Below are positions 1,534-50,480 of a stretch of 64,000 nucleotides of DNA, in pieces. The notes under the pieces were generated by a model. It made no database searches. It had not been told where the DNA came from and saw only the letters and a program-made list of their open reading frames with translations. The stretch is from NCBI GenBank assembly GCA_041191405.1, contig JBEEOW010000007.1:33484-97483 (forward strand), written 5' to 3'. This DNA comes from Bacteroidota bacterium (GTDB lineage: Bacteria; Bacteroidota; Bacteroidia; Cytophagales; UBA9547). Each line of letters starts with the position of its first letter. Position 1 is the first letter of the stretch. Made by a program: the position numbers and the translations under genes.

Positions 1534-1534
1534 A

Positions 1535-1590
1535 AATCTTAAATCTTAAATCTTAAATCTTAAGTCTAAAATCTTCTATCTTAATCTATC
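1535..1590. repeat. 7-bp tandem repeat (aaatctt)x4 plus degenerate units containing atcttaagtctaa
   Basis: The periodicity is visible directly in the sequence. The same module recurs at 50447-50480. Confidence 0.7.
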
Positions 1591-2532: not shown

Positions 2533-3759
2533 TTAATCTTCTAAATATTCTTGAATATCAGAATAGTTTGCTTCTAAAGTTTTTTTGATTTCTTTTTTAC
2601 TTAAATCTTGTGGCCATACTACATTCATATCATTGGTTGTAGCATCGTTTGAATTATTGTTTCCTCCAGCATCGTAGTTATTATTCATACCTTGTAATTC
2701 AATATATGGACTCATGGTGCCGTTGTAAGTTGGTTTTCCAAAATAATAACTAAACGAAAAACCTATAAACCCAGCATCTTGAATTTGAATATCTCTTCCT
2801 GCTCCTCTAAATACATTTGGTCCCCCAATTCCTGAAAGTCTTTGTGTTGAGTTTAAATTAACAACTCTGTTAGTAACAACACCTAAATTGAAAGAGAAAT
2901 ATAAGTTAGGTGTAAATGATTTGTTAATCATTAAACCTGTTAGCCATTCTGTTCTATTAAGTACTAATTCTGTTCCATCAATACCCGACCTAAAAATATT
3001 TTGGTTTGATTTGTCAATAACAAATTTATAAACTCCTCCATTTGGTCGAGTAAAAAGTCCAAAATAAGTTTTTTTAGAGATTCGAATATTGTAACTTATA
3101 TTTCTTGGAATTTGAATTAATAGAAAACTCTTGGTATAATCTCCAATCCTTACTCCTAATGTTGGCATAAATCTACCACCACCTAGTCTAAAATTATAAC
3201 TTAAACCTAATTGATAACTAAATCTGTTGTTTACACTTCTATTGTAAACCAAATCATACATATATCTCCATTTTGCTTTACCCACACTAAATCTATCTTC
3301 AGCAAAAAAACTATTTACATTCCACATAAGTATTCCTTTTTTGCCATCAAAATGAAATCCTCTTAAGCCAACTGACAGTTTTTTAAAATTTGGTTTTGAT
3401 TCGTAAAATGAGAATTGTGGATTAGAGGTTAGGATATTTCCTGTGAATAGTAATGTGAAAAATTTAGTTCTATCGTCTTTTTGAGTATATGAATTATAAA
3501 ATGGCAAAAATCCACTTAAACTTCGTTCCGAAAATCTATATTCTACTTCATTTAATAAAGGTGATTGAGTTTTTAATTTGGAAACTCCTGTTCCCCAAAC
3601 ATTTAAAGAAATAGTTGGTCGTAATTTGAATTTTTCAGGTGTTTTTGGGATTGAATCTTGGGCATTTGCAAAGCCCATTGAAGCCATTAATAATGTAAAA
3701 ATGGCTATATATTTAAAGGTAATAGTTCGCAAGTTGATGTCAGTTTTTGTTTTTGACAA
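2533..3759 (-). CDS. secreted hypothetical protein (signal peptide; possibly outer-membrane associated)
   Basis: It has an N-terminal signal peptide ending ANAQ and a composition rich in beta-strand-forming residues. There is no catalytic motif. Confidence 0.45.
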   Translation of the reverse strand: MSKTKTDINLRTITFKYIAIFTLLMASMGFANAQDSIPKTPEKFKLRPTISLNVWGTGVSKLKTQSPLLNEVEYRFSERSLSGFLPFYNSYTQKDDRTKFFTLLFTGNILTSNPQFSFYESKPNFKKLSVGLRGFHFDGKKGILMWNVNSFFAEDRFSVGKAKWRYMYDLVYNRSVNNRFSYQLGLSYNFRLGGGRFMPTLGVRIGDYTKSFLLIQIPRNISYNIRISKKTYFGLFTRPNGGVYKFVIDKSNQNIFRSGIDGTELVLNRTEWLTGLMINKSFTPNLYFSFNLGVVTNRVVNLNSTQRLSGIGGPNVFRGAGRDIQIQDAGFIGFSFSYYFGKPTYNGTMSPYIELQGMNNNYDAGGNNNSNDATTNDMNVVWPQDLSKKEIKKTLEANYSDIQEYLED

Positions 3760-22156: not shown

Positions 22157-22262
22157 ATTTTTAGTTAAGAGTTTAGTGTTCAGAAGTTAAGAGTTTTCGA
22201 GTTAAGATTTTAAAATTTTTGTAAACTATAAACCCTAAACTCTATACTCTTAACTCTAAACT
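22157..22262. repeat. inverted array of gttaaga(g)tt-type heptamer repeats forming a long imperfect hairpin
   Basis: The left arm reads gttaagagtttag...gttaagagttttcgagttaagatttt and the right arm reads aaccctaaactctatactcttaactctaaact. It sits between the chorismate-enzyme stop and the tex start. Confidence 0.6.
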
Positions 22263-28980: not shown

Positions 28981-30291
28981 ATGGCTTTATTATTTACTTC
29001 AGAATCAGTGTCGGAAGGACACCCAGATAAAGTAGCCGATCAAATTTCGGATGCACTATTAGATGCACATTTAGCACAAGATCCACAATCTCGTTTTGCT
29101 TGTGAAACATTGGTAACTACAGGTTTAGTTGTGGTTGCTGGTGAAATCACTACTAAAGCAAATGTTGATGTACAAGCAGTTGTACGTGCAACAATCAACA
29201 AAATTGGTTATACCAAAGCTGAATATATGTTTGAAGCTGAGTCATGTGGTATCATGAATGCACTTCATGCACAATCACCTGATATTGCACAAGGTGTAAA
29301 CGAAGGCGAAGGTTTGGATAAAGAGCAAGGTGCTGGTGACCAAGGTATGATGTTTGGTTATGCATCAACTGAAACTCCTGAGTATATGCCAATGGCTTTA
29401 GCGTTTTCTCACAGATTAGTGAAAAAAATGTCTGAAATCAGAAAAGAAGGTAAAATAATGACATACCTTCGTCCAGATACAAAATCACAAGTTACAATAG
29501 AGTACGACGAAGCTGGTAAAGCAAAAAGAGTTGATACTATTGTAATTTCTACACAACATGATGATTTTGTAAAACCAACTAACAATAGCAAAGAAGCTAA
29601 ATTAGTAGCCGACAATGCAATGTTAGATGTTATCAAAGCTGATATTTTAGCAAATGTAATTCCTGCAGTAATCCCAGCTGAGTTATTAGATGCTAACACA
29701 AAATATTTTATTAACCCAACAGGCGTATTCGTAATTGGTGGTCCACATGGTGATTCTGGCTTAACAGGTAGAAAAATTATTGTTGATACTTACGGTGGAA
29801 AAGGTGCTCACGGTGGTGGTGCATTCTCTGGTAAAGACCCATCAAAAGTGGACCGTTCGGCAGCTTATGCAGCACGTCACGTAGCTAAAAACTTAGTTGC
29901 AGCGGGTGTTTGTACCGAAGCTTTAGTACAAGTTGCTTATGCAATTGGTATTGCTAAACCAGTTTCTATCAATGTAAATACTTATGGTACAGCAGTAAAT
30001 GGCTTATCTGATGCTAAAATTGCTGATGCTGTAAATAAAGTATTTGATATGAGACCAAAAGCTATTGTTGAAAGATTTGGATTAAAAAATCCAATTTATT
30101 CAGAAACAGCAGCTTACGGACACATGGGTAGAGAAAGCTACGAAAAAGAAATTGATGTAAACTATGTTACTGTTTCTGAAAACAATGGCGTAGTTACTGA
30201 AACTCGTACAGCATCTAAGAAAAAAGTAACTTTCTTCGGATGGGAGAAACTTGATTATGTTGATGCAATTAAGAAAGAATTAGGTATTTAG
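28981..30291 (+). CDS. metK: S-adenosylmethionine synthetase
   Basis: Motifs [33 protein letters not shown] and [16 protein letters not shown] are present. Confidence 0.95.
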
Positions 30292-30340
30292 TATTTAGTA
30301 TTTAGTATTTAGTACAAAGTATTAAGTATTAAGAAAAGAG
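30285..30340. repeat. 7-bp tandem repeat (tatttag)x5 - tacaaag - (tattaag)x2
   Basis: Seen directly in the sequence. It starts in the last codons of metK. A nearly identical module lies at 50401-50437. Confidence 0.7.
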
Positions 30341-30392: not shown

Positions 30393-30977
30393 TTGTATTA
30401 CTTAAATAATAAATACTTTATGAGAGCTACTGCCTTTTTTAAAAATAAATTATTCTATATCGTTCTATTTCTTTTTTCTCTTACCCAAAGTTATAGTCAA
30501 TGTAGTTTTGAGTATAATGATTCATTTAAGAAAAGAAAAGTTTTAGAACAGAATTGGAATAATATAAAATTTGAATTTATTCCTGAAGACCTTAAAAAAT
30601 TCCCATTAATATTTCAACGATTTAGTGACGAAAATTATGAAAATAAAATAAACGTCCAAAAAGAAAAACTTTTAAGAAAAGACACTACTTGTAGTTGTTT
30701 AGAAGGTAATTATAGTACAATGTGGTATAATGAGGACTGGATTGAAAAATACTATAAAGGTGAATATACTTTTAAAAATATCGATTCTATTCAAGATTTT
30801 AATCCTGAAAAATTTCCTTATGTGATGATGTGTTATAATACTTTAGACTATTTTTCGAATGGTTACGGAAGCGGAAGAGTAGGTGTATATATTTGGGATA
30901 GAAGAACTGATAAAAAGTACAAAGTCATTAGTGTATGTGGTAAAAGTGAAATGGTTTGGTTTTTGAAAAATATATAA
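30393..30977 (+). CDS. secreted hypothetical protein
   Basis: It has a signal peptide ending SYSQ. Confidence 0.4.
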   Translation: MYYLNNKYFMRATAFFKNKLFYIVLFLFSLTQSYSQCSFEYNDSFKKRKVLEQNWNNIKFEFIPEDLKKFPLIFQRFSDENYENKINVQKEKLLRKDTTCSCLEGNYSTMWYNEDWIEKYYKGEYTFKNIDSIQDFNPEKFPYVMMCYNTLDYFSNGYGSGRVGVYIWDRRTDKKYKVISVCGKSEMVWFLKNI

Positions 30978-38957: not shown

Positions 38958-41900
38958 CTATTCCACCACAATAGGAAAATCCTGACCTCGTGAGAAGGTG
39001 TATGGGAATTGAAGTTTACCGCTGTATTTATTGTTTAACTCTGGCACTTGGTCGTCGAGGTAAGATTTTAATTCATAAATAGTTACCTTGCCATCTTTAG
39101 GCGAACCATCGGCTTTGCCCGACATGGCATCGAGCAACACATAAGTAAATAATCCATGTTTCAATGTTGAAAGTTCTTTGGCATTTTGCTCGCTTCCCGC
39201 CGATGCCAACACATGTATTCCTGCACTTCGTGAAAGTTGTGCCAAGGCTTTTTCCTCCATCGAACCTCGCATTGCCAACAACTCTACCGAACCTCCTGAT
39301 TGACAAGCATCCATGATAATTATCTGCTTCAATGCTTTTATTTGTTTAAAAATCTCTTGCATTTCGGTAGCTGAAATGGCTGCTTTTGAAAGTCTGCCAT
39401 CATCAAACAAACGTGGGCAATCGCTTGGTATAAAATAAAATTTATTGTCGCTCATGCTTCCATGTCCAGCATAATAAAACACAAAAACATCGTGCGAAGA
39501 GGTGTGTTTTGCCAATGCATTGAGTGTATCAAGTATGTTTTGTTTCGTTGCTTGTTCATCAAAAATGGTATGTATTTTCATGGAAGTGTATAAAGCTCCT
39601 TTGTGTTTTTGTAAAGAATCTACAAAAGATTGGGCATCTTCATGTGCAAAATTCAGTGTCAAATTTGGGTTTTTATATTTGTTAATTCCAATTGCCAACA
39701 CATGGCAAACTATTTTATTATCAGCATTTTCTGCAAAATAGGCTGCACCAACAGGCGACGATTCAACCCTACCTTTGCTATAACCTGTAACCTCCAACTT
39801 ATTATGTCCACGAACCAAATTAACTGATTGATTGATAACAATGAAACTGTCTTTTTCCTGAGGGAAAATAATTTTTGAATGGTCAATTGGCAATAATTTC
39901 CCATTGTGACTTAGTTTTATTTCATCAATACCTCCACCAGAATTTATAATTTTAATTCTCAAATCCGCCGTTTGTCCGTCGGGTTTTACATTCAAGGCAG
40001 TTCTAATAATTGGCGGAGGCGAGGTATTTAACTTATCATTCATCGAAGGCATTTTGTTGGCTCCACCCCTATTTTTAAACAAACTTGGCAACAAGTCCGG
40101 ACGATAATATTCTTCAAAAAATTGGTCGGGAGCATAAACTTCCATGCCTTTTACAAAGTTTATTGCACTGCGAGCCATAGTAGTTGCGTTGAAATATCCA
40201 TCCTTTGTATGTGCCATCCATTCATTTTCGCCAAGGTGTAAATGTTCGTAAAACTCTACGCCTTTTTCAAGGTTCCAGCATTTAATAGCACCATCTAAAC
40301 TATAGGAAATCAACAACTTATTATCATTACTAATTTTAAGTGAAGTAATTTCTGATTGATGTCCTTCAAGTGTTTGAATTAATTTCCCAGAGTTTGCATC
40401 CCAAATCCTAATGATTCTATCTGCTCCAGCGGTGATAACTTTTTTATCGTCTTTGGTAAAAATTGCTGCATGAATAGCCCCTTCGTGACCTTTGAATTTT
40501 TGCAACATAATTCCTGTTGAAATATCCCAAATTCGTGCAGTTCCATCCCATGAGGCACTCAACATTTTGTATTTATCCAAACCAAAACTTACCGCCGACA
40601 CTATATCTGTATGTCCTAAAAATGAGCGAACTACGTTTTTACTATCTGGTTCAATCAATTGCAAGGTTTTATCAAGTTTTGCTACCACCAAATACAAACT
40701 ACTTGGCAAAAACGCAATACTATATCCTGAATAATTATTTAAATCAATGTCGGATATTTTTTTACCAGTAGATAAATTCCATAAAATAATACTTCCATCC
40801 CATGAGGAAGTAGCCACAGTTTCTCCATCTGGACTTAATTTAACATCGAAAATTGGTTCTCTGTGACCTTTAAATGTTTTCAGTTTTTTACCCGTTTCCA
40901 TTTCCCACAACATTGCTTCTCCACTTGCATCAGCGGTTACAAGTAGCTTATTATCAACACTAATATCAAAACAAATTACTGCTTTTTCGTGCCCTGTAAA
41001 TGCAGTTTCTGGTTTGCCCGAAGCAATATTCCATTTAATAGCTTTTCGAGCAATTTTGCCTGTTATAAAAAACTTGTCATCTTTACTTAAGGCAATTAAA
41101 TTCTTGTATCTTAAATATTTAGCAATATTTGATTGCCAATAATTATCAGGGTCATAATCGAGCCCTCCATTATCTTGACCATTTAAAATTCCACTTAATT
41201 TACCAATCACTTTTCCGTTTAAAGCATTATAAATCAATGCAATATTTTTATTGCAAGCTGTAATTATACTATTGCCATCAATGCTATAAATTGCTTCATT
41301 TACACTTCCTGCTGCTGTATCTGATTTAAAAGTTTGAATTAACTTATTGGTAGTCAAATCATATTGCGAAACAAAATCAGCAACTAGCAACAGTTTTTTG
41401 CCATCAGCACTAAAATTCAGACCTTGTAATTTATCAACTTCGGCACCAAATTTTAATTTTTCTTTTCCTGTTAAAACATCAAAAAGTCTTAAGGTATCAT
41501 TATGAGATAATTTTGCAAGATACTTATTATCAGCACTAAACTCAACCAAAGTACCACAGCCACCACACCAACCTTCTGCTGGAGCAATTGTATGTAACAA
41601 AGAAAAATCACTTGTTTTATAAATTTTTGCAGTTTTATTGTCTTCACCAATAGCAAGTAATTTACTATCGTTACTAAATGCAAGGCTAATTCCGTAGCCC
41701 GAACCTTGGTCAGCATTGGTAGCAATTTTGGTTATTAAAGTCCAATTTGAAGTATTATACACCTCCGCTGAATCACTATAACCAGCTAAAATTAAATACT
41801 TTGCATCAGGCGAAAAAGCGACATCGGTTACATATTTATTTTGTTCAGGTGATGAAAAAACTAATTTCCCTGAATTTACAAGCCAAACTTTCACTGTATT

Positions 41901-42188
41901 ATCAGCACTTGAAGACGCTATATATTTCCCATCTTTACTCCACGACAAACCATTAACTGTGGAAGTATGCCCCAACAAACTTCTAATTTGAGCACCTGTA
42001 CTTGCATCCCAAATAATAATACTTTTGTCTCTACTTCCTGTTGCAAAGTATTTACCATCAGTACTAGTAGCAATTGCTTTTACAGCCGCTGAATGTCCTT
42101 TTTGAATAACAGTTTCAAGTTTGTTTTGTGCAAAGCTTGCAAATGTGATAAGGATTAAAAATATTGGTAAAATGTGTTTTAATTTCAT
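38958..42188 (-). CDS. secreted WD40-repeat (two beta-propellers) protein with C-terminal caspase-like (peptidase C14) domain
   Basis: It has a signal peptide ending SFAQ and about 14 WD-like repeats (for example GHTSTVNGLSWSKDGKYIASSSADNTVKVW). The C-terminal domain carries the caspase His/Cys dyad contexts YYAGHGS and IIMDACQSGG. Confidence 0.8.
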   Translation of the reverse strand: MKLKHILPIFLILITFASFAQNKLETVIQKGHSAAVKAIATSTDGKYFATGSRDKSIIIWDASTGAQIRSLLGHTSTVNGLSWSKDGKYIASSSADNTVKVWLVNSGKLVFSSPEQNKYVTDVAFSPDAKYLILAGYSDSAEVYNTSNWTLITKIATNADQGSGYGISLAFSNDSKLLAIGEDNKTAKIYKTSDFSLLHTIAPAEGWCGGCGTLVEFSADNKYLAKLSHNDTLRLFDVLTGKEKLKFGAEVDKLQGLNFSADGKKLLLVADFVSQYDLTTNKLIQTFKSDTAAGSVNEAIYSIDGNSIITACNKNIALIYNALNGKVIGKLSGILNGQDNGGLDYDPDNYWQSNIAKYLRYKNLIALSKDDKFFITGKIARKAIKWNIASGKPETAFTGHEKAVICFDISVDNKLLVTADASGEAMLWEMETGKKLKTFKGHREPIFDVKLSPDGETVATSSWDGSIILWNLSTGKKISDIDLNNYSGYSIAFLPSSLYLVVAKLDKTLQLIEPDSKNVVRSFLGHTDIVSAVSFGLDKYKMLSASWDGTARIWDISTGIMLQKFKGHEGAIHAAIFTKDDKKVITAGADRIIRIWDANSGKLIQTLEGHQSEITSLKISNDNKLLISYSLDGAIKCWNLEKGVEFYEHLHLGENEWMAHTKDGYFNATTMARSAINFVKGMEVYAPDQFFEEYYRPDLLPSLFKNRGGANKMPSMNDKLNTSPPPIIRTALNVKPDGQTADLRIKIINSGGGIDEIKLSHNGKLLPIDHSKIIFPQEKDSFIVINQSVNLVRGHNKLEVTGYSKGRVESSPVGAAYFAENADNKIVCHVLAIGINKYKNPNLTLNFAHEDAQSFVDSLQKHKGALYTSMKIHTIFDEQATKQNILDTLNALAKHTSSHDVFVFYYAGHGSMSDNKFYFIPSDCPRLFDDGRLSKAAISATEMQEIFKQIKALKQIIIMDACQSGGSVELLAMRGSMEEKALAQLSRSAGIHVLASAGSEQNAKELSTLKHGLFTYVLLDAMSGKADGSPKDGKVTIYELKSYLDDQVPELNNKYSGKLQFPYTFSRGQDFPIVVE

Positions 42189-42301: not shown

Positions 42302-42874
42302 TTATTGATTCAGAATCAATTTTTCTTCTAAAACCTTAGCAAATTTATAGCAAATCAAAGCAAAAAGTACTCCAGTAATACCTCCTGCAAGTACATCAGT
42401 TGTGTAGTGAACTGCTAAATATACTCTACTATAACTAATTAAAGTCGCCCAAAGTAACATTCCTGTTAACCAGTATTTTCGTGGTTTTAACCATAAGCCA
42501 AATATTATTGCAATTGCAAATGAGTTTGCAGCATGTGAGGATATAAAACCATATTGACTACCTGCTTTTTCAGGAACTTGTAATTTTGGCGCTAAATTAA
42601 CATCATAACAAGGTCTGTATCGTTTGAAAAATGGCTTACAAAATCCAGATGAAAATCTATCTGCCATGGCAATTAACAGTACAATTATTAAAACTTTGAT
42701 TCCCACACTTTTTAATGGGTAGCTTTTGTACAAACAAAATAACAAAATTGCATAAAAAATATACCACGTTTGTTTACGTGATACAAATAGCATAAACTTA
42801 TCCCAAAATGGTGTATGTGTATTATTTATTGCAAATAATATAACCTCGTCCCAATGTTGAATAGTTTCTAGCAT
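42302..42874 (-). CDS. PAP2-family phosphatase (membrane)
   Basis: Motifs KRYRPCYD, SSHAANSFA and SRVYLAVHYTTD match the three PAP2 motifs. Confidence 0.75.
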   Translation of the reverse strand: MLETIQHWDEVILFAINNTHTPFWDKFMLFVSRKQTWYIFYAILLFCLYKSYPLKSVGIKVLIIVLLIAMADRFSSGFCKPFFKRYRPCYDVNLAPKLQVPEKAGSQYGFISSHAANSFAIAIIFGLWLKPRKYWLTGMLLWATLISYSRVYLAVHYTTDVLAGGITGVLFALICYKFAKVLEEKLILNQ

Positions 42875-42878
42875 GTTG

Positions 42879-42975
42879 TAGTTGAGAGTTAAGAGTTAAG
42901 AGTTGAGAGTTAAGAGTTGAGAGTTGAGAGTTGAGAGTTTAAACAAAAACTCTTAACCCTCAACTCTTAACCCTC
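42879..42975. repeat. eight tandem gttgaga/gttaaga heptamers followed by inverted complement units (aactcttaaccctc x2)
   Basis: Seen directly in the sequence. It forms a long imperfect hairpin and exactly fills the hisIE-PAP2 intergenic space. Confidence 0.7.
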
Positions 42976-42977
42976 TA

Positions 42978-43583
42978 CTATTTATGTCTTGCTTTTAATA
43001 CTTCTAACACCTCATCAAGCGTGTAATTTTTAGCTTCTAATAAAACCAAGTAATGGAATAACAAATCAGCAGCTTCACCAAGGAATAGCTCTTTGTTGTC
43101 ATCTTTAGCTTCTATTACCAATTCTACGGCTTCCTCTCCTACTTTTTGAGCAACTTTGTTAATTCCTTTGTGAAATAAACTTGAAGTATATGACGATTCT
43201 GGAGAAGCTGCTTTACGTTGTTTAACAACCTCTTTTAATTGATTAATAAACAATGTATTATCAACTTTGTTTGGTTCATTAAAACAAGTATCAGCACCAG
43301 TGTGACATACGGGACCAACTGGTTCAGCTTTAATTAAAACAGTATCTTTGTCGCAGTCAACAATGATATTTTTAACCATCAAAAAATTGTTTGATGTTTC
43401 ACCTTTGGTCCACAAACGATTTTTTGTTCTACTAAAAAATGTAACCTTACCTTCAGCAACAGTTTTTTCTAATGCTACTTTATTCATAAACCCAACCATT
43501 AGCACTTTAGATGTTTGAACATCTTGCACTACTGCTGGGATTAAACCACCTTGTTTTTCGAAATCAATCTCTGCTATATTCAT
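42978..43583 (-). CDS. hisIE: bifunctional phosphoribosyl-AMP cyclohydrolase / phosphoribosyl-ATP pyrophosphatase
   Basis: The HisI part matches GGLIPAVVQDVQTSKVLMVGFMN...CHTG, and the HisE part matches the C-terminus (LFLGEAADLLFHYLVLL). Confidence 0.85.
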   Translation of the reverse strand: MNIAEIDFEKQGGLIPAVVQDVQTSKVLMVGFMNKVALEKTVAEGKVTFFSRTKNRLWTKGETSNNFLMVKNIIVDCDKDTVLIKAEPVGPVCHTGADTCFNEPNKVDNTLFINQLKEVVKQRKAASPESSYTSSLFHKGINKVAQKVGEEAVELVIEAKDDNKELFLGEAADLLFHYLVLLEAKNYTLDEVLEVLKARHK

Positions 43584-44792: not shown

Positions 44793-45734
44793 TTATTCTT
44801 GCGAAGCAAGGTATCTTTCAGCATCTAAAGCTGCCATACAGCCAGTTCCTGCGGCAGTAATTGCTTGTCTGTAAACGTGGTCTTGAACATCTCCACAAGC
44901 AAAAACGCCTTCTACATTTGTTTTTGAACTATCAGGTTTAGTGATGATATAACCACTTTCGTCCATATCAATTACACCTTTAAATATATCAGAATTTGGT
45001 TTGTGACCAATAGCTACAAAGAAACCAGTTACCGCTTTTTGAGTTATTTCACCTGTTCGAACATTTTTTACAGTAAATCCGTCAACACCATCTTTACCTA
45101 AAATTTCTTGTGTTTCTGATTCCCATAAAATTTCAATTTTAGGATTGTTCATTACACGTTTTTGCATAATTACCGAAGCTCTCATTTGACCTTCTGGCTT
45201 ACGCACAATCATATACACTTTATTACAAAGATTTGCTAAATAAGTAGCTTCTTCACAAGCTGTATCACCAGCTCCAACAATGGCAACATCTTGATTTCTA
45301 TAGAAAAAACCGTCGCAAACAGCACAAGCCGAAACGCCCATACCATTCAAACGTGTTTCTGATTCTAAACCTAACCATTTTGCAGATGCACCTGTCGAAA
45401 TAATTACAGTATCAGCCTCAATAACTGTGGTTTCGTCAATAGTAACTTTTTTGTTTTTAGGGTCTGAAAAATCCACTGAAGTTGCTATACCTATGCGAAT
45501 ATCAGCACCAAAACGTTTAGCTTGCTCTTCAAATTGAACCATCATTTCTGGACCAGTAACTCCTTCTGGGTAGCCAGGGAAATTCTCTACATCATTAGTC
45601 ATAGTAAGCTGACCACCAGGTTGTGGACCTGTATATAAAACTGGTTTTAAACCAGCTCTTGATGCATAAATTGCCGCTGTATATCCCGCAGGACCTGATC
45701 CAATAATTAAACAATGTACTTTTTCTGCTGACAT
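44793..45734 (-). CDS. trxB: thioredoxin-disulfide reductase
   Basis: It has the FAD motif GSGPAGYTAA, the redox centre CAVCDG and the NADPH motif GAGDTA. Confidence 0.9.
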   Translation of the reverse strand: MSAEKVHCLIIGSGPAGYTAAIYASRAGLKPVLYTGPQPGGQLTMTNDVENFPGYPEGVTGPEMMVQFEEQAKRFGADIRIGIATSVDFSDPKNKKVTIDETTVIEADTVIISTGASAKWLGLESETRLNGMGVSACAVCDGFFYRNQDVAIVGAGDTACEEATYLANLCNKVYMIVRKPEGQMRASVIMQKRVMNNPKIEILWESETQEILGKDGVDGFTVKNVRTGEITQKAVTGFFVAIGHKPNSDIFKGVIDMDESGYIITKPDSSKTNVEGVFACGDVQDHVYRQAITAAGTGCMAALDAERYLASQE

Positions 45735-45931
45735 AATATTTCTAGTTTATCTATTCTCAAAATTGATATTACAAAAATGGTTAATCAATGCCTTAAACAC
45801 AAATTATATGGCATTGATTATTTTTATTTCAAGATAAAAATTATTGATAGTTTTCTTCAAGACTTAGGATGAATGACATAAGACTTTGTAATAAAATATT
45901 ATTAATTGAGATGTAGATGAGCGGTGGGCAA

Positions 45932-46058
45932 AAAATCCTTGGATATGGCATCATGATTGTAAATCAGGACGAGCACGATAATCATACTACAAAAAGGTTC
46001 GGAGAACCTAATTTATCTACTGTTCGAGATGCGCTTCGCTAACATCTCGAACAGCAAG
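45932..46058 (+). repeat. R1 repeat copy a (~127 bp) ending in a 12-bp-stem hairpin plus T-run
   Basis: It is about 90% identical to 46853-46979. The hairpin ctgttcgagatg-cgcttcgctaa-catctcgaacag at 46020-46054 is followed by agattttatt. Confidence 0.65.
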
Positions 46059-46065
46059 ATTTTAT

Positions 46066-46169
46066 TAGTTTTTGTTCTTAATTTTTAAGGGAAGGTGTCG
46101 ATGAGCGGTCGTTTATCTAGTTTTTGTTGTTAATTTTTAAGAGAAGATGTGGAAGAGCGGACAATATCT
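46066..46169. repeat. 52-bp tandem duplication (2 units)
   Basis: The units are tagtttttgttcttaatttttaagggaaggtgtcgatgagcggtcg and tagtttttgttgttaatttttaagagaagatgtggaagagcggaca. A related gatgtagatgagcggtgggc sits at 45903. Confidence 0.55.
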
Positions 46170-46594
46170 TAAATTTTAACACCTATAGTAATTAGATGGA
46201 GTATATTATTTAATTTTTTTACATTATTAACTTTTAATATGTGATATTCAGATTGGGTCATTTGCCAACTCTGAATTTTGGAAATTTCTTTAATTAAGAA
46301 ATCTGACCATAAGCTACTTTTTGAAAAATAAAAAAATAACTTTTCAGGTTCATTTAAAATATCATATTCATCTTTAGGGAAAGGTTCTTCCCAATTGTCA
46401 AAATAATCTGGCACATCCCTAATTATTTCAATATAATTTTCAAAAATAGATTTGCTCAAAGTTTTTAATTGCTCGTTATCAATTGATATTATTATCTGAA
46501 TTTTTACCTTAGAATTAACTCTTTCATTGTCTGACCAAGTAAATTCGTCATAACTCAATTTATTAAACCCTAATGATAAATTTTCTATTCTCAT
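46169..46594 (-). CDS. hypothetical small acidic cytoplasmic protein (141 aa)
   Basis: Intact ORF flanked by repeat elements. It has no motif. Confidence 0.4.
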   Translation of the reverse strand: MRIENLSLGFNKLSYDEFTWSDNERVNSKVKIQIIISIDNEQLKTLSKSIFENYIEIIRDVPDYFDNWEEPFPKDEYDILNEPEKLFFYFSKSSLWSDFLIKEISKIQSWQMTQSEYHILKVNNVKKLNNILHLITIGVKI

Positions 46595-46705
46595 TATGTA
46601 TTTCGCACTTATTAATGTTATGCACTGTAGCTACCCTTGTTATTCTTATGACCAACAAGCCACTATATTTTATATCTTACTCCAATCTGAGTAATGACAT
46701 AAAAT

Positions 46706-46818
46706 TTCCGCTACTCGACTTCTTCCCTAACCACTTACACAACTGCAAGATAGTGTGGCTATTCGATATTTGCAATGTCGAATCAGTATCAGTGGATTTG
46801 CAATCCACATAAACAGTT
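46706..46818. repeat. R2 repeat copy a (~110 bp)
   Basis: It matches 47811-47916, apart from a 12-bp indel and a few substitutions. Confidence 0.6.
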
Positions 46819-46852
46819 GTTAAAAAAACATTTTGCTAACTATTTAGGATTG

Positions 46853-46979
46853 AAAATCCTTAGATATAGCATCCAGATTGCAAATCATTACGAGCACGAT
46901 AATCATACTACAAAAAGGTTCAGAGAACCTAATTTATCTACAGTTCGAGATGCGCTTCGCTAACATCTCGAACAGCAAG
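46853..46979 (+). repeat. R1 repeat copy b, hairpin plus ttttttt
   Basis: It is a direct repeat of 45932-46058. Its terminator-like hairpin lies at 46942-46975 and is followed by a T7 run. Confidence 0.65.
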
Positions 46980-47089
46980 TTTTTTTGAATCTATTATATT
47001 CAGTCGTTGCACTTACTACAGCTAAACCTGCTTGTACAAAGGAACTTGCCCTGCAAAGTTCACTGTTATTTTCTTTCCCATTAAAGTAT

Positions 47090-47602
47090 TCAGCGGTCTT
47101 GCCCCCTAATTTTATTGAAATTCAATACTAAATAAAGAGGAACTTTTCTTTTTATAAATTCATTCCCTCGTCTTATTCTGATTACCCCATCGCCTAAATA
47201 CATTACATTCAAACTTAGGTTAAAACATTTATATTGTCCTTCTTTAGTGCTCAATATAGATGTCTCGTATTTTTCCAAAACCGAATGAAGAGAATCATTT
47301 ATACCAATACTAAAGTATTTTATTGATTTACTATTTTGTTCATTAATACATTGTTTGGGCACTTCTAATCCATATTCAAAGGCATAAAAACCTTCCTTAT
47401 AAGCAATACTATCATTTTGTATAACAAATAAAGAAGCCCTTCTATATATCATATCATCTTCAGACCATAAATCATTTGACCATTCAAAAGCAAAATCCCC
47501 TTCTATATGTTTTACATCACATATCTTCAAGTCTTGACCATAGGTTTTTAAGCTAATAAAAACAAACAGTATATATATATACTTGCTACTTAATTTTAAC
47601 AT
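47090..47602 (-). CDS. secreted hypothetical protein (170 aa, signal peptide)
   Basis: It has a signal peptide ending TYGQ. Its ATG overlaps the last five codons of the metalloprotease remnant. Confidence 0.45.
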   Translation of the reverse strand: MLKLSSKYIYILFVFISLKTYGQDLKICDVKHIEGDFAFEWSNDLWSEDDMIYRRASLFVIQNDSIAYKEGFYAFEYGLEVPKQCINEQNSKSIKYFSIGINDSLHSVLEKYETSILSTKEGQYKCFNLSLNVMYLGDGVIRIRRGNEFIKRKVPLYLVLNFNKIRGQDR

Positions 47603-47849
47603 TTTTTAAGTTTGTATTAATTATATCAATATTATTCTTCTTTGTAGGTCTAATTATACCCTGTTTATTGCTCATCATCCCGTCTTGGCTATAATCGTCT
47701 TTTGCATGATTAAGACCAAAGTTATGTCCCATCTCATGTGCAACTAAGTCTTTCTCATCAGCTCCATGCTCGGCTACATTTATATCTATAGGGTTCTTTC
47801 CAAAAACTTCATCATTTCCGCTCCTCGAGTTCTTCCCTAACCACTTACA
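47586..47849 (-). pseudogene. start-less C-terminal remnant of an HExxHxxGxxH zinc metalloprotease (metzincin-like)
   Basis: The translation is CKWLGKNSRSGNDEVFGKNPIDINVAEHGADEKDLVAHEMGHNFGLNHAKDDYSQDG...NVKIK*. There is no start codon upstream of the HExxH motif, and the reading frame opens inside repeat R2b. Confidence 0.55.
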
Positions 47850-47916
47850 CTACTGCAAGATAGTGTAGCTATTCGATATTTACAATGTCGAATATTTGCA
47901 ATCCACATAAACAGTT
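47811..47916. repeat. R2 repeat copy b
   Basis: It is a direct repeat of 46706-46818. On the minus strand its end encodes CKWLGK(N/K)S(R/S)SGN in frame with the metalloprotease remnant. Confidence 0.6.
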
Positions 47917-47995
47917 TTTAATTAAACCATTTATTTATTCATTTAAACATTCAAAAAATCAATTAATACATTAATTTTAATGAAAATTTTAACTT

Positions 47996-48679
47996 ATGAA
48001 AAATTTAGTAGTTCTAACAGGTGCAGGTATAAGTGCCGAAAGTGGCATAAAAACTTTTAGAGATTCTGACGGATTATGGGAAGGACACGATGTAATGGAA
48101 GTGGCTACTCCTCAAGGTTTTGCGAAGAACCCTGCGTTGGTTTTAGAGTTTTATAACCAACGTAGAAAACAAGCTCTTGAAGTAAAACCAAATGGTGGTC
48201 ACATAGGTTTGAAAGACTTAGAAAAACATTTTAATGTATCAATCATTACCCAAAATGTAGATTCATTACACGAACATGCAGGTTCAAAAAATGTACTTCA
48301 TTTACATGGAAAATTAGACGAAAGTAGAAGTACTAAAAACCCTGATTTAGTGTATAAATTAAATTCTTGGGAGCTTAACTTAGGAGATAAATGTGAATTA
48401 GGTTCTCAACTTCGCCCAAATATAGTATGGTTTGGTGAGGCGGTTCCAGCCATTGAGGGTGCAATAGAAATTGTAGCCAAAGCTGATATTTTCGTCATAA
48501 TTGGTACATCATTAGTTGTTTACCCAGCCGCAAGTTTGATTGATTATGTTCCTAAAAAAGTGCCAGTTTATGTAATTGACCCAAATAAACCCTCACTTAC
48601 AAATATCAAACACAATATAACTTTTATTGAAGAAATGGCTAGTGTTGGGGTGGAAAAATTAAAGGGTTTGATAATATAA
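47996..48679 (+). CDS. NAD-dependent protein deacylase, Sir2 family (CobB-like)
   Basis: It has the Sir2 motifs GAGISAESGIKTFRD, QNVDSLH and an HG in LHLHGKL. The Zn-ribbon region has only one conserved Cys, which matches the short bacterial CobB forms. It is 227 aa. Confidence 0.85.
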   Translation: MKNLVVLTGAGISAESGIKTFRDSDGLWEGHDVMEVATPQGFAKNPALVLEFYNQRRKQALEVKPNGGHIGLKDLEKHFNVSIITQNVDSLHEHAGSKNVLHLHGKLDESRSTKNPDLVYKLNSWELNLGDKCELGSQLRPNIVWFGEAVPAIEGAIEIVAKADIFVIIGTSLVVYPAASLIDYVPKKVPVYVIDPNKPSLTNIKHNITFIEEMASVGVEKLKGLII

Positions 48680-50394: not shown

Positions 50395-50400
50395 TTTTTT

Positions 50401-50480
50401 AGTATTAGGTATTAGGTACTAAGTACAAAGTATTTGAAAAATAAAATCTTAAGTCTAATGTCTATAATCTTAAGTCTAAA
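50401..50480. repeat. heptamer repeat module (gtattag x2, gtactaa, gtacaaa, gtatttg) followed by the atcttaagtctaa module x2
   Basis: It shares agtacaaagtatt with the metK locus and atcttaagtctaa with the 1535-1590 locus. Confidence 0.65.

Follow-up and report, generated by a model that had tools for sequence, protein, structure and literature searches.

Heptanucleotide repeats are, according to the summary of Mrazek (2007) in PMC4679880, the most abundant class of long simple sequence repeats in prokaryotes. Here we describe an element of this kind in a 64,000-nucleotide stretch of DNA (the window) from an uncultured Bacteroidota lineage, in which an array of heptamers and its imperfect inverted complement lie between hisIE and the gene for a PAP2-family phosphatase. 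Among the closest described systems, the GGGAATC arrays of Xanthomonas form 70 to 75 convergent inverted pairs per genome, whose potential to form stem-loops has been noted (Rehm et al. 2015, PMC4692102); the length of these pairs varies between related genomes, while their type, single or paired, is kept (PMC4692102). At hmw1A of Haemophilus influenzae, a transcribed (AUCUUUC)n tract pairs with a G-rich arm, RNase III cleaves the resulting hairpin (Rapun-Araiz et al. 2025, PMC12721329), and no natural strain carries fewer repeats than the stem requires (PMC12721329). TAACTGA direct repeats occur in Beggiatoaceae, Cyanobacteria and some Bacteroidetes, for example, Flexibacter litoralis (MacGregor 2015, PMC4679880).

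The heptamer hairpin described here is the entire hisIE-PAP2 intercistronic spacer. Both flanking genes lie on the minus strand and both were confirmed by Pfam. The elements of the locus, in the direction of the mRNA, are the following.

42978-43583, minus strand: hisIE (PRA-CH and PRA-PH), the upstream cistron, with its stop codon TAG at 42978-42980 (Pfam).
42948-42979, minus strand: the G-rich arm, 5' in the mRNA, with a repeat period of 14 nt (GAGGGUUAAGAGUUGAGGGUUAAGAG), which overlaps the hisIE stop; a second in-frame TAG follows (Tandem Repeats Finder, fold, strains).
42940-42947, minus strand: nonrepeat spacer between the arrays, in the sense direction UUUUUGUU within GAGUUUUUGUUUAAACUC.
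42919-42939 plus 42940-42947, minus strand: apical loop of the predicted fold; 42887-42918 is the 3' strand of the stem (fold).
42880-42939, minus strand: the 3' arm on the mRNA, a pyrimidine-rich, G-free heptamer repeat (ACUCUCA/ACUCUUA) in 8.6 copies (Tandem Repeats Finder, fold, strain comparison).
42302-42874, minus strand: PAP2-family phosphatase gene, the downstream cistron, with its ATG at 42872-42874 and the heptamer array as its 5' leader (Pfam).

Tandem Repeats Finder described 42880-42939 as a period-7 array of 8.6 copies of AGTTGAG/AGTTAAG with 92% matches and 42948-42979 as a period-14 run (AACTCTTAACCCTC) of 2.3 copies, the latter being the imperfect inverted complement of the former. 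Because both arms are repetitive, they can pair in several registers; they are 32 to 35 nt long, 82 to 88% complementary and 6 to 36 nt apart. A single hairpin dominates the fold, with the G-rich arm 5' and the heptamer run 3' in mRNA polarity. Folded as RNA, the sense (minus) strand reaches -43.0 kcal/mol (z -10.2) and the plus strand -38.9 kcal/mol (z -6.2); none of 200 shuffles folds as well, and folds with DNA parameters are likewise significant. The sense minimum-energy structure consists of a 28-bp stem and a 3-bp outer helix that takes in two bases of the hisIE stop codon, and three surplus heptamer units (42919-47) are looped out. The stem's 3' strand stops 12 nt short of the PAP2 AUG, the array itself ends 5 nt from the ATG in forward orientation, and hisIE closes with tandem in-frame stops, TAG TAG (42975-42980). 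The original prediction had placed here an array followed by its imperfect reverse complement, filling the gap and folding into a stem of more than 25 bp, and these arrays and this stem are borne out. The 12-nt loop that it assigned to the arrangement did not hold as a fixed feature, as the loop depends on the register. A scan of the whole window against Rfam 15 returned no match at the gathering score.

The locus varies between strains. We compared a small set of about nine contigs with three length alleles, whose hisIE genes are 97 to 100% identical. Among independent assemblies the pyrimidine-rich 3' arm comprises 5, 6 or 8 units, the alleles being separated by whole multiples of 7 nt, and the G-rich 5' arm is of the same length in all strains. 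Contigs encoding an identical hisIE protein carry two different array-length alleles, and five short-read contigs end in or exactly at the heptamer array. As this polymorphism shows, the arrays lengthen and shorten in 7-nt steps through slipped-strand mispairing. All three alleles share the base-anchored stem at the stop codon (-41.9, -41.4 and -43.0 kcal/mol) and differ in the apical loop alone. In this small set the fewest units seen is five, where the full stem needs about four. Beyond this lineage the next hisIE relatives are only 74% identical, which marks the lineage as isolated.

These properties place the locus close to, but not within, several described systems. Like the Xanthomonas arrays (PMC4692102), it consists of tandem 7-nt units that are intergenic, between co-directional genes (as is the case for most of those arrays), near the end of the upstream open reading frame (ORF) and arranged as a convergent pair. 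It differs from them in that its units are AT rich (AGTTGAG/AGTTAAG) and have no G-quadruplex potential, the sense strand holding only two GGG tracts, where at least four would be needed, and the heptamer run none, in that it belongs to an uncultured Bacteroidota lineage and in that the pair fills the whole stop-to-start gap. The likeness to hmw1A and hmw2A is structural and, on our side, entirely in silico: a pyrimidine-rich heptamer repeat and a G-rich arm make a hairpin, long and imperfect, ahead of a start codon, and additional repeats leave the stem unchanged. The smallest natural number of repeats at hmw lies just above what the stem needs, and the smallest of our three alleles has five units. 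In the hmw system, however, the repeat is the 5' arm, is present in 11 to 63 copies and lies in the 5' untranslated region of a phase-variable adhesin, and RNase III cleavage and effects on expression have been demonstrated, whereas our repeat is the 3' arm, has 5 to 8 copies and is intercistronic, upstream of a housekeeping-type PAP2 gene.

The TAACTGA repeats share with our arrays five of seven bases (TAACTCT/CAACTCT versus TAACTGA), stops in all three frames and a placement in which forward arrays end a few nucleotides before start codons, sometimes over the upstream stop. They are almost always direct, without a partner or predicted structure, while what chiefly marks our locus is the inverted partner and the hairpin, and no TAACTGA tandem is present in the window, the units being TAACTCT/CAACTCT. 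As with the cyanobacterial short tandemly repeated repetitive (STRR) sequences of Calothrix and Nostoc, insofar as these are cited in PMC4692102, tandem heptanucleotide arrays are dispersed in intergenic regions; units and phylum differ, and inverted pairing is reported to be rare in Nostoc (PMC4692102). Repetitive extragenic palindromic (REP) sequences and bacterial interspersed mosaic elements (BIMEs) are likewise imperfect palindromes in transcribed intergenic regions of operons and at gene 3' ends. They are thought to stabilize upstream mRNA and to modulate downstream expression. REPs differ in being high-copy, near-identical units of 20 to 40 bp that are mobilized by REP-associated tyrosine transposases (RAYTs), unlike the hairpins of the window, which are made on the spot from tandem heptamers, vary among sites and change in 7-nt steps. 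Overall, the locus has the properties of a heptamer simple sequence repeat and of an inverted pair and lacks those that define a G-quadruplex, a TAACTGA array, a terminator, an attenuator, a REP or a miniature inverted-repeat transposable element (MITE).

The window holds further arrays. Period 7 is its sole strong self-match among periods 4 to 12, and it contains five runs of at least three near-identical heptamers, compared with 0 to 3 (mostly 0 or 1) in shuffles. Of its five heptamer arrays, the four other than that at hisIE-PAP2 are listed below.

22157-22255, minus strand: sister hairpin, degenerate, from the stop of a PabB-like (chorismate-binding) gene to the start of tex (fold; identical in a second assembly).
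1534-1584, minus strand: unpaired sense array of five UUAAGAU units over the stop of the gene for a DUF4293 protein, ahead of a canonical terminator (1506-1532).
30275-30333, plus strand: sense array of eight UUUAGUA/UUAAGUA units beginning within the metK stop codon, followed by a canonical terminator.
50402-50470, minus strand: two adjoining heptamer arrays (UUAGACU/UAAGAUU, then AUACCUA type) in an 86-nt co-directional gap.

All five are intergenic and in sense orientation, and each starts at or inside the stop codon of the upstream gene. The genes upstream are unrelated in function (hisIE, the PabB-like enzyme, metK, the DUF4293 protein and a hypothetical protein), and the hairpin is not specific to histidine biosynthesis. 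A UUWAG core is common to the sense units (UUAAGAG, UUGAGGG, UUUAGAG, UUAAGAU, UUUAGUA and UUUAGAC). We observed that the first array unit supplies the stop codon, or that tandem stops lie there, at 42975-42980, 22256-22262, 30289-30291 and 1576-1578; the arrays therefore intrude on the 3' ends of coding sequences and are partly responsible for where these lie. In three short gaps between co-directional genes (42875-42977, 22157-22255 and 50395-50480), a sense array, an A/U-rich spacer and an antisense-type array take up all the space to the ATG, and two arrays (1534-1584 and 30275-30333) precede canonical terminators. For the metK array, pairing is predicted with a short inverted remnant (about 30400-30418) that directly precedes the next ATG.

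At the sister locus, where a structure of the same unit type had been predicted between the PabB-like gene and tex, unit type and layout do match those of the hisIE-PAP2 hairpin, in degenerate form. Its arms are 26 nt long with 81% complementarity, and the sense strand folds at -29.3 kcal/mol (z -4.35). The sense 5' arm reads UUUAGAG, UUAAGAG, UAUAGAG and UUUAGGG before an A/U-rich loop, the 3' arm is an interrupted CUCUUAA type that ends 8 nt before the tex ATG, and the PabB-like stop TAG (22256-22258) sits within the first unit. For strain comparison this locus offers one identical copy and one 93% relative. In the latter, a related organism, the 93%-identical PabB-like homologue carries a UUAAGAC/UUAAGAU array directly after its stop codon. 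Downstream of this gene, at 1455-1538 of contig L333, a motif of about 45 nt (ATATCCT.G.GATG.GTG.AAGCCCATCGTA) occurs twice in place of the tex junction.

Heptamer arrays and hairpins recur well beyond the window. Across 613 kb of sequence surrounding hisIE in 80 further Bacteroidota genomes, we found 10 arrays of period 7, 3 of period 8 and 1 of period 11, and none of periods 4 to 6, 9, 10 or 12. An inverted partner lies within 150 nt of 5 of 9 Bacteroidota arrays, compared with 0 in controls. "Reversed" and "complement" partner controls are invalid for AGTTGAG, a unit that is nearly its own reverse, and unbiased and viral sets were used instead. A heptamer hairpin stands at the junction upstream of hisH in most Algoriphagus-type genomes of the Cyclobacteriaceae, and in other relatives its place is taken by ordinary GC-rich stem-loops or a true terminator. 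In the Cyclobacteriaceae his loci L033 to L079 the hairpins lie about 60 to 175 nt upstream of hisH. The units at this junction belong to three mutually incompatible families (GAAGACC/GGTCTTC, TAGACAT/ATGTCTA and CGGATGT/ACATCCG); arms of the same family pair at -28 to -47 kcal/mol, against an off-diagonal mean of -15.5.

A scan for (AGTTRAG)3 recovered more than 120 metagenome contigs of 35 to 65% GC. One of them, from a member of the Roseiflexaceae (Chloroflexota) with 65% GC, repeats the complete architecture between an ABC permease gene and an ATPase gene (L102, 1882-1963): a stop codon, 4.5 copies of AGTTAAG, a loop, 5 copies of CTCTTAA, GAA and the ATG. In relatives whose ATPases are 87 to 91% identical, the same junction (contigs L326 to L332, around 1045-1200) is a 6-nt gap, an AAATTGC/GCAATTT hairpin or a 156-nt GC-rich spacer. 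By rough ORF calls, 64 of 130 metagenome arrays have an ORF stop no more than 60 nt upstream, read on the AGTTRAG strand, mostly from -6 to +12 nt, and 21 arrays have a start no more than 14 nt downstream of the CTYAACT strand. We left aside selection for stops in three frames as a circular argument, because any ORF that enters a sense array necessarily stops there. By gene context, 36 paired arrays are co-directional, 18 convergent and 7 divergent. These comparisons show a class that is labile in evolution, with gain, loss and replacement of units, and whose arms are nonetheless kept complementary, and they show that it occupies positions where relatives carry conventional stem-loops.

Two further observations concern the AGTTRAG unit. 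The IMG/VR viral contigs L233 and L252 each carry four or five separate AGTTRAG arrays within about 15 kb, which suggests a regular intergenic placement in some phage genomes. Runs of (CTCTCAA)n also occur inside apparent coding sequences (L184, about 3654-3690, LeuRS-like; L209, about 1541-1575, aconitase-like), and these may be assembly chimeras at repeats or in-frame insertions.

We propose, with roughly even confidence, that the two inverted heptanucleotide simple-sequence-repeat arrays act as an intercistronic double-stranded RNA stem on the processing and translation of the downstream gene. Scans for a sigma-70-type promoter, the Bacteroidetes -7 box (TAnnTTTG) and terminators found nothing in either hairpin gap, and the spacer is for this reason most simply read as part of one minus-strand transcript. 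It would be co-transcribed with hisIE and PAP2 and fold as an imperfect stem of 28 plus 3 bp, the base of which would contain the hisIE stop codon and the opposite strand of which would be the PAP2 leader from -12 to -43. Until opened by an endonuclease or by a ribosome that terminates on hisIE, such a stem would keep the greater part of the PAP2 initiation region masked. The 28-bp stem could also serve as a double-stranded RNA substrate for RNase III; after cleavage it would block 3'-to-5' exonucleases and protect the upstream message, and masking, cleavage and exonuclease block together would uncouple the amounts of the two cistrons. A change in copy number would alter the apical loop only and leave the base of the stem unaffected. 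A role of the stem in RNA processing and PAP2 translation is our best guess, and an RNase processing site, one of the functions that had been suggested for the locus, is plausible, as experiments at hmw1A have shown RNase III to act on a stem in which a heptamer repeat pairs with a G-rich arm (PMC12721329).

Several observations weigh against this proposal. Co-transcription, folding in the cell, cleavage and an effect on PAP2 are all steps that we infer. One of the three gap-filling arrays of the window, at 50395-50480, does not fold: its arms (50402-50470) are not complementary, and the gap gives no significant fold. Pairing is therefore frequent but not obligatory. Compensatory changes in the stem had been put forward as a check on its conservation in related genomes. 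Among the strains compared there are no compensatory double changes, and of three point changes in or beside the stem one is neutral (A-U to G-U) and two are disruptive. In none of 80 related loci is there a hisIE-PAP2 junction, and neither a PAP2 nor an M23 peptidase gene lies next to hisIE in any of them. Selection on RNA might have left the sense strand the more stable one, but in the 36 co-directional paired arrays it is more stable than the antisense strand in 14 cases and less so in 20 (p = 0.39), and for 20 hisH-junction hairpins the count is 9 versus 9. Since there is no sense-strand bias elsewhere, we dropped the G-U asymmetry as an argument for selection on RNA, and the better sense-strand fold at the two loci of the window may be due to chance. 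The complementarity of the arms could be upheld by selection for pairing or by templated correction between arms, and with the failure of the stability test the latter could be its source; templated mutation between the arms could keep them complementary without any selection.

A neutral explanation is possible in our view but distinctly less probable than our proposal. Arrays would arise by replication slippage and their partners by fold-back template switching, and both would be tolerated at gene 3' ends and in operon gaps without any role in expression. Fast copy-number change among strains, presence, absence and unit replacement at homologous junctions, the missing sense-strand bias and the nonpairing example at 50395-50480 all agree with this, as does the published idea, summarized from Mrazek (2007) in PMC4679880, that polymerase slippage favors 7 nt. 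Many unrelated heptamers form arrays as well: stretches in viral contigs number 57 for AGTTRAG and 45 and 12 for two permuted heptamers, so that AGTTRAG is common but not unique (AGTGRAT, used as a control, is itself a natural array unit and a poor control). On the other side, most relatives at the hisH junction of the Cyclobacteriaceae, in many species and with three unit families, have either a heptamer hairpin or an ordinary stem-loop, which suggests that a hairpin is wanted there. None of the three alleles observed at the hisIE-PAP2 locus has fewer units than the full stem requires, AT-rich units are retained in a genome of 65% GC, and the stems are anchored at stop and start codons instead of lying at random within the gap.

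A reading in which the arrays serve as protein-binding sites appears very unlikely to us. Here the NAG or UUWAG motifs, spaced at 7 nt, would be bound by an oligomeric RNA- or DNA-binding protein that controls termination or translation. HutP recognizes UAG triplets at a spacing of 4 nt; the sites of TRAP are spaced GAG or UAG triplets. The UUWAG core common to the sense arrays of this genome, in one orientation directly after stops, would suit such a protein, and the related TAACTGA repeats have been proposed as sites for a translational regulator (PMC4679880). Against it, one and the same junction has wholly different units in different lineages, and arrays are formed by many permuted heptamers, leaving no single conserved motif; no candidate binding protein was identified, and the inverted partner is left unexplained.

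It is more improbable still that, as a terminator or his attenuator, the hairpin halts or modulates RNA polymerase in the gap from hisIE to PAP2. The stem is long, stable and located at a gene 3' end, true terminators occur at analogous junctions in relatives (L001, for instance), and paired arrays are overrepresented between convergent genes. Yet neither stem is followed by a U-tract (the hisIE-PAP2 stem is followed by ACUACAACAUG), neither locus has a terminator-like call, and canonical terminators are found elsewhere in the window. The original prediction had held structures of this length and regularity to be more than simple terminators, and with this we agree. Its further suggestion of an attenuator finds no footing: the hairpin lies downstream of hisIE and not upstream of a his operon, hisIE here being outside any such operon, the hisIE-PAP2 gap has no ATG and no leader ORF beginning with one, and the same kind of array follows metK and the DUF4293, PabB-like and hypothetical genes. 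We rejected both candidates on the missing U-tract, leader peptide and alternative pairings.

Least probable of all is the insertion of a MITE- or REP-like palindrome, for although homologous junctions may be empty or filled, an AT-rich element may stand in a GC-rich genome, the AGTTRAG unit spans contigs of 35 to 65% GC, and the GTAG...CTAC at the outer ends of the hisIE-PAP2 hairpin resembles a REP tag of the kind mentioned in PMC3733652, the 64-kb window has no identical dispersed copies (its two hairpins share unit type only), a target-site duplication is missing, the array gains or loses length internally and by whole 7-nt units, the GTAG derives from the tandem stop codons and is absent from the sister locus, and the neighboring ORFs examined encode no transposase or RAYT domain. 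We rejected a MITE specifically because there is neither a target-site duplication nor a repeated full-length copy and the length changes fall inside the array, and a REP or BIME because only two hairpins occur in 64 kb, alike in unit type and not in sequence. Of the suggestion that these structures are recombination or insertion scars, one part survives: empty sites and hairpins of unrelated heptamers at homologous junctions indicate that such elements are gained and replaced. The 7-nt steps, the lack of identical dispersed copies and the lack of a recognizable transposase nearby indicate slippage-driven arrays rather than transposon scars.

The interval 45700-48050 holds dispersed repeats that have no relation to the heptamers. 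They comprise a 132-nt module at 45932-46063 and 46853-46984 (92% identical), an 80-nt module at 46704-46783 and 47814-47893 (94% identical) and a 52-nt tandem at 46061-46160, and they are followed by a SIR2-family gene (47996-48679). Small minus-strand ORFs between them (46169-46594 and 47090-47602) have no Pfam match, and as a REP/RAYT source these repeats at 45.7 to 48 kb offer no transposase domain. Directly downstream of the PAP2 gene, 38958-42188 on the minus strand encodes a protein of 1,076 amino acids with many WD40 repeats and a long non-WD40 C-terminal part.

Our proposal for the hisIE-PAP2 stem could be carried further, in a form that we regard as a rather doubtful speculation. Heptamer-array hairpins would then constitute a widespread, unnamed intercistronic class in Bacteroidota, Chloroflexota and phages that replaces operon stem-loops, with arms co-evolving by slippage and arm-to-arm templating and with copy number setting a graded, RNase III-dependent expression of the downstream gene, here PAP2; this would be a nonpathogen counterpart of hmw phase variation.

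In conclusion, the kind of element described here is already known, if functionally obscure, and the novelty of this member is modest. What is new are the AT-rich units with both arms repetitive, the complete bridging from stop to start, the occurrence in an uncultured Bacteroidota lineage and a comparative series in which units are replaced while the arms co-vary. For annotators there is a practical consequence, as heptamer repeats break short-read assemblies and can supply stop codons. A function of heptanucleotide repeats is known essentially from one pathogen locus. In environmental Bacteroidota and Chloroflexota, these repeats typically form inverted pairs that span the gap from a stop codon to the following start, and they turn over quickly. 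If these hairpins affect mRNA processing or translation, they would form a common, tunable layer of operon regulation and a source of differences in expression within populations.

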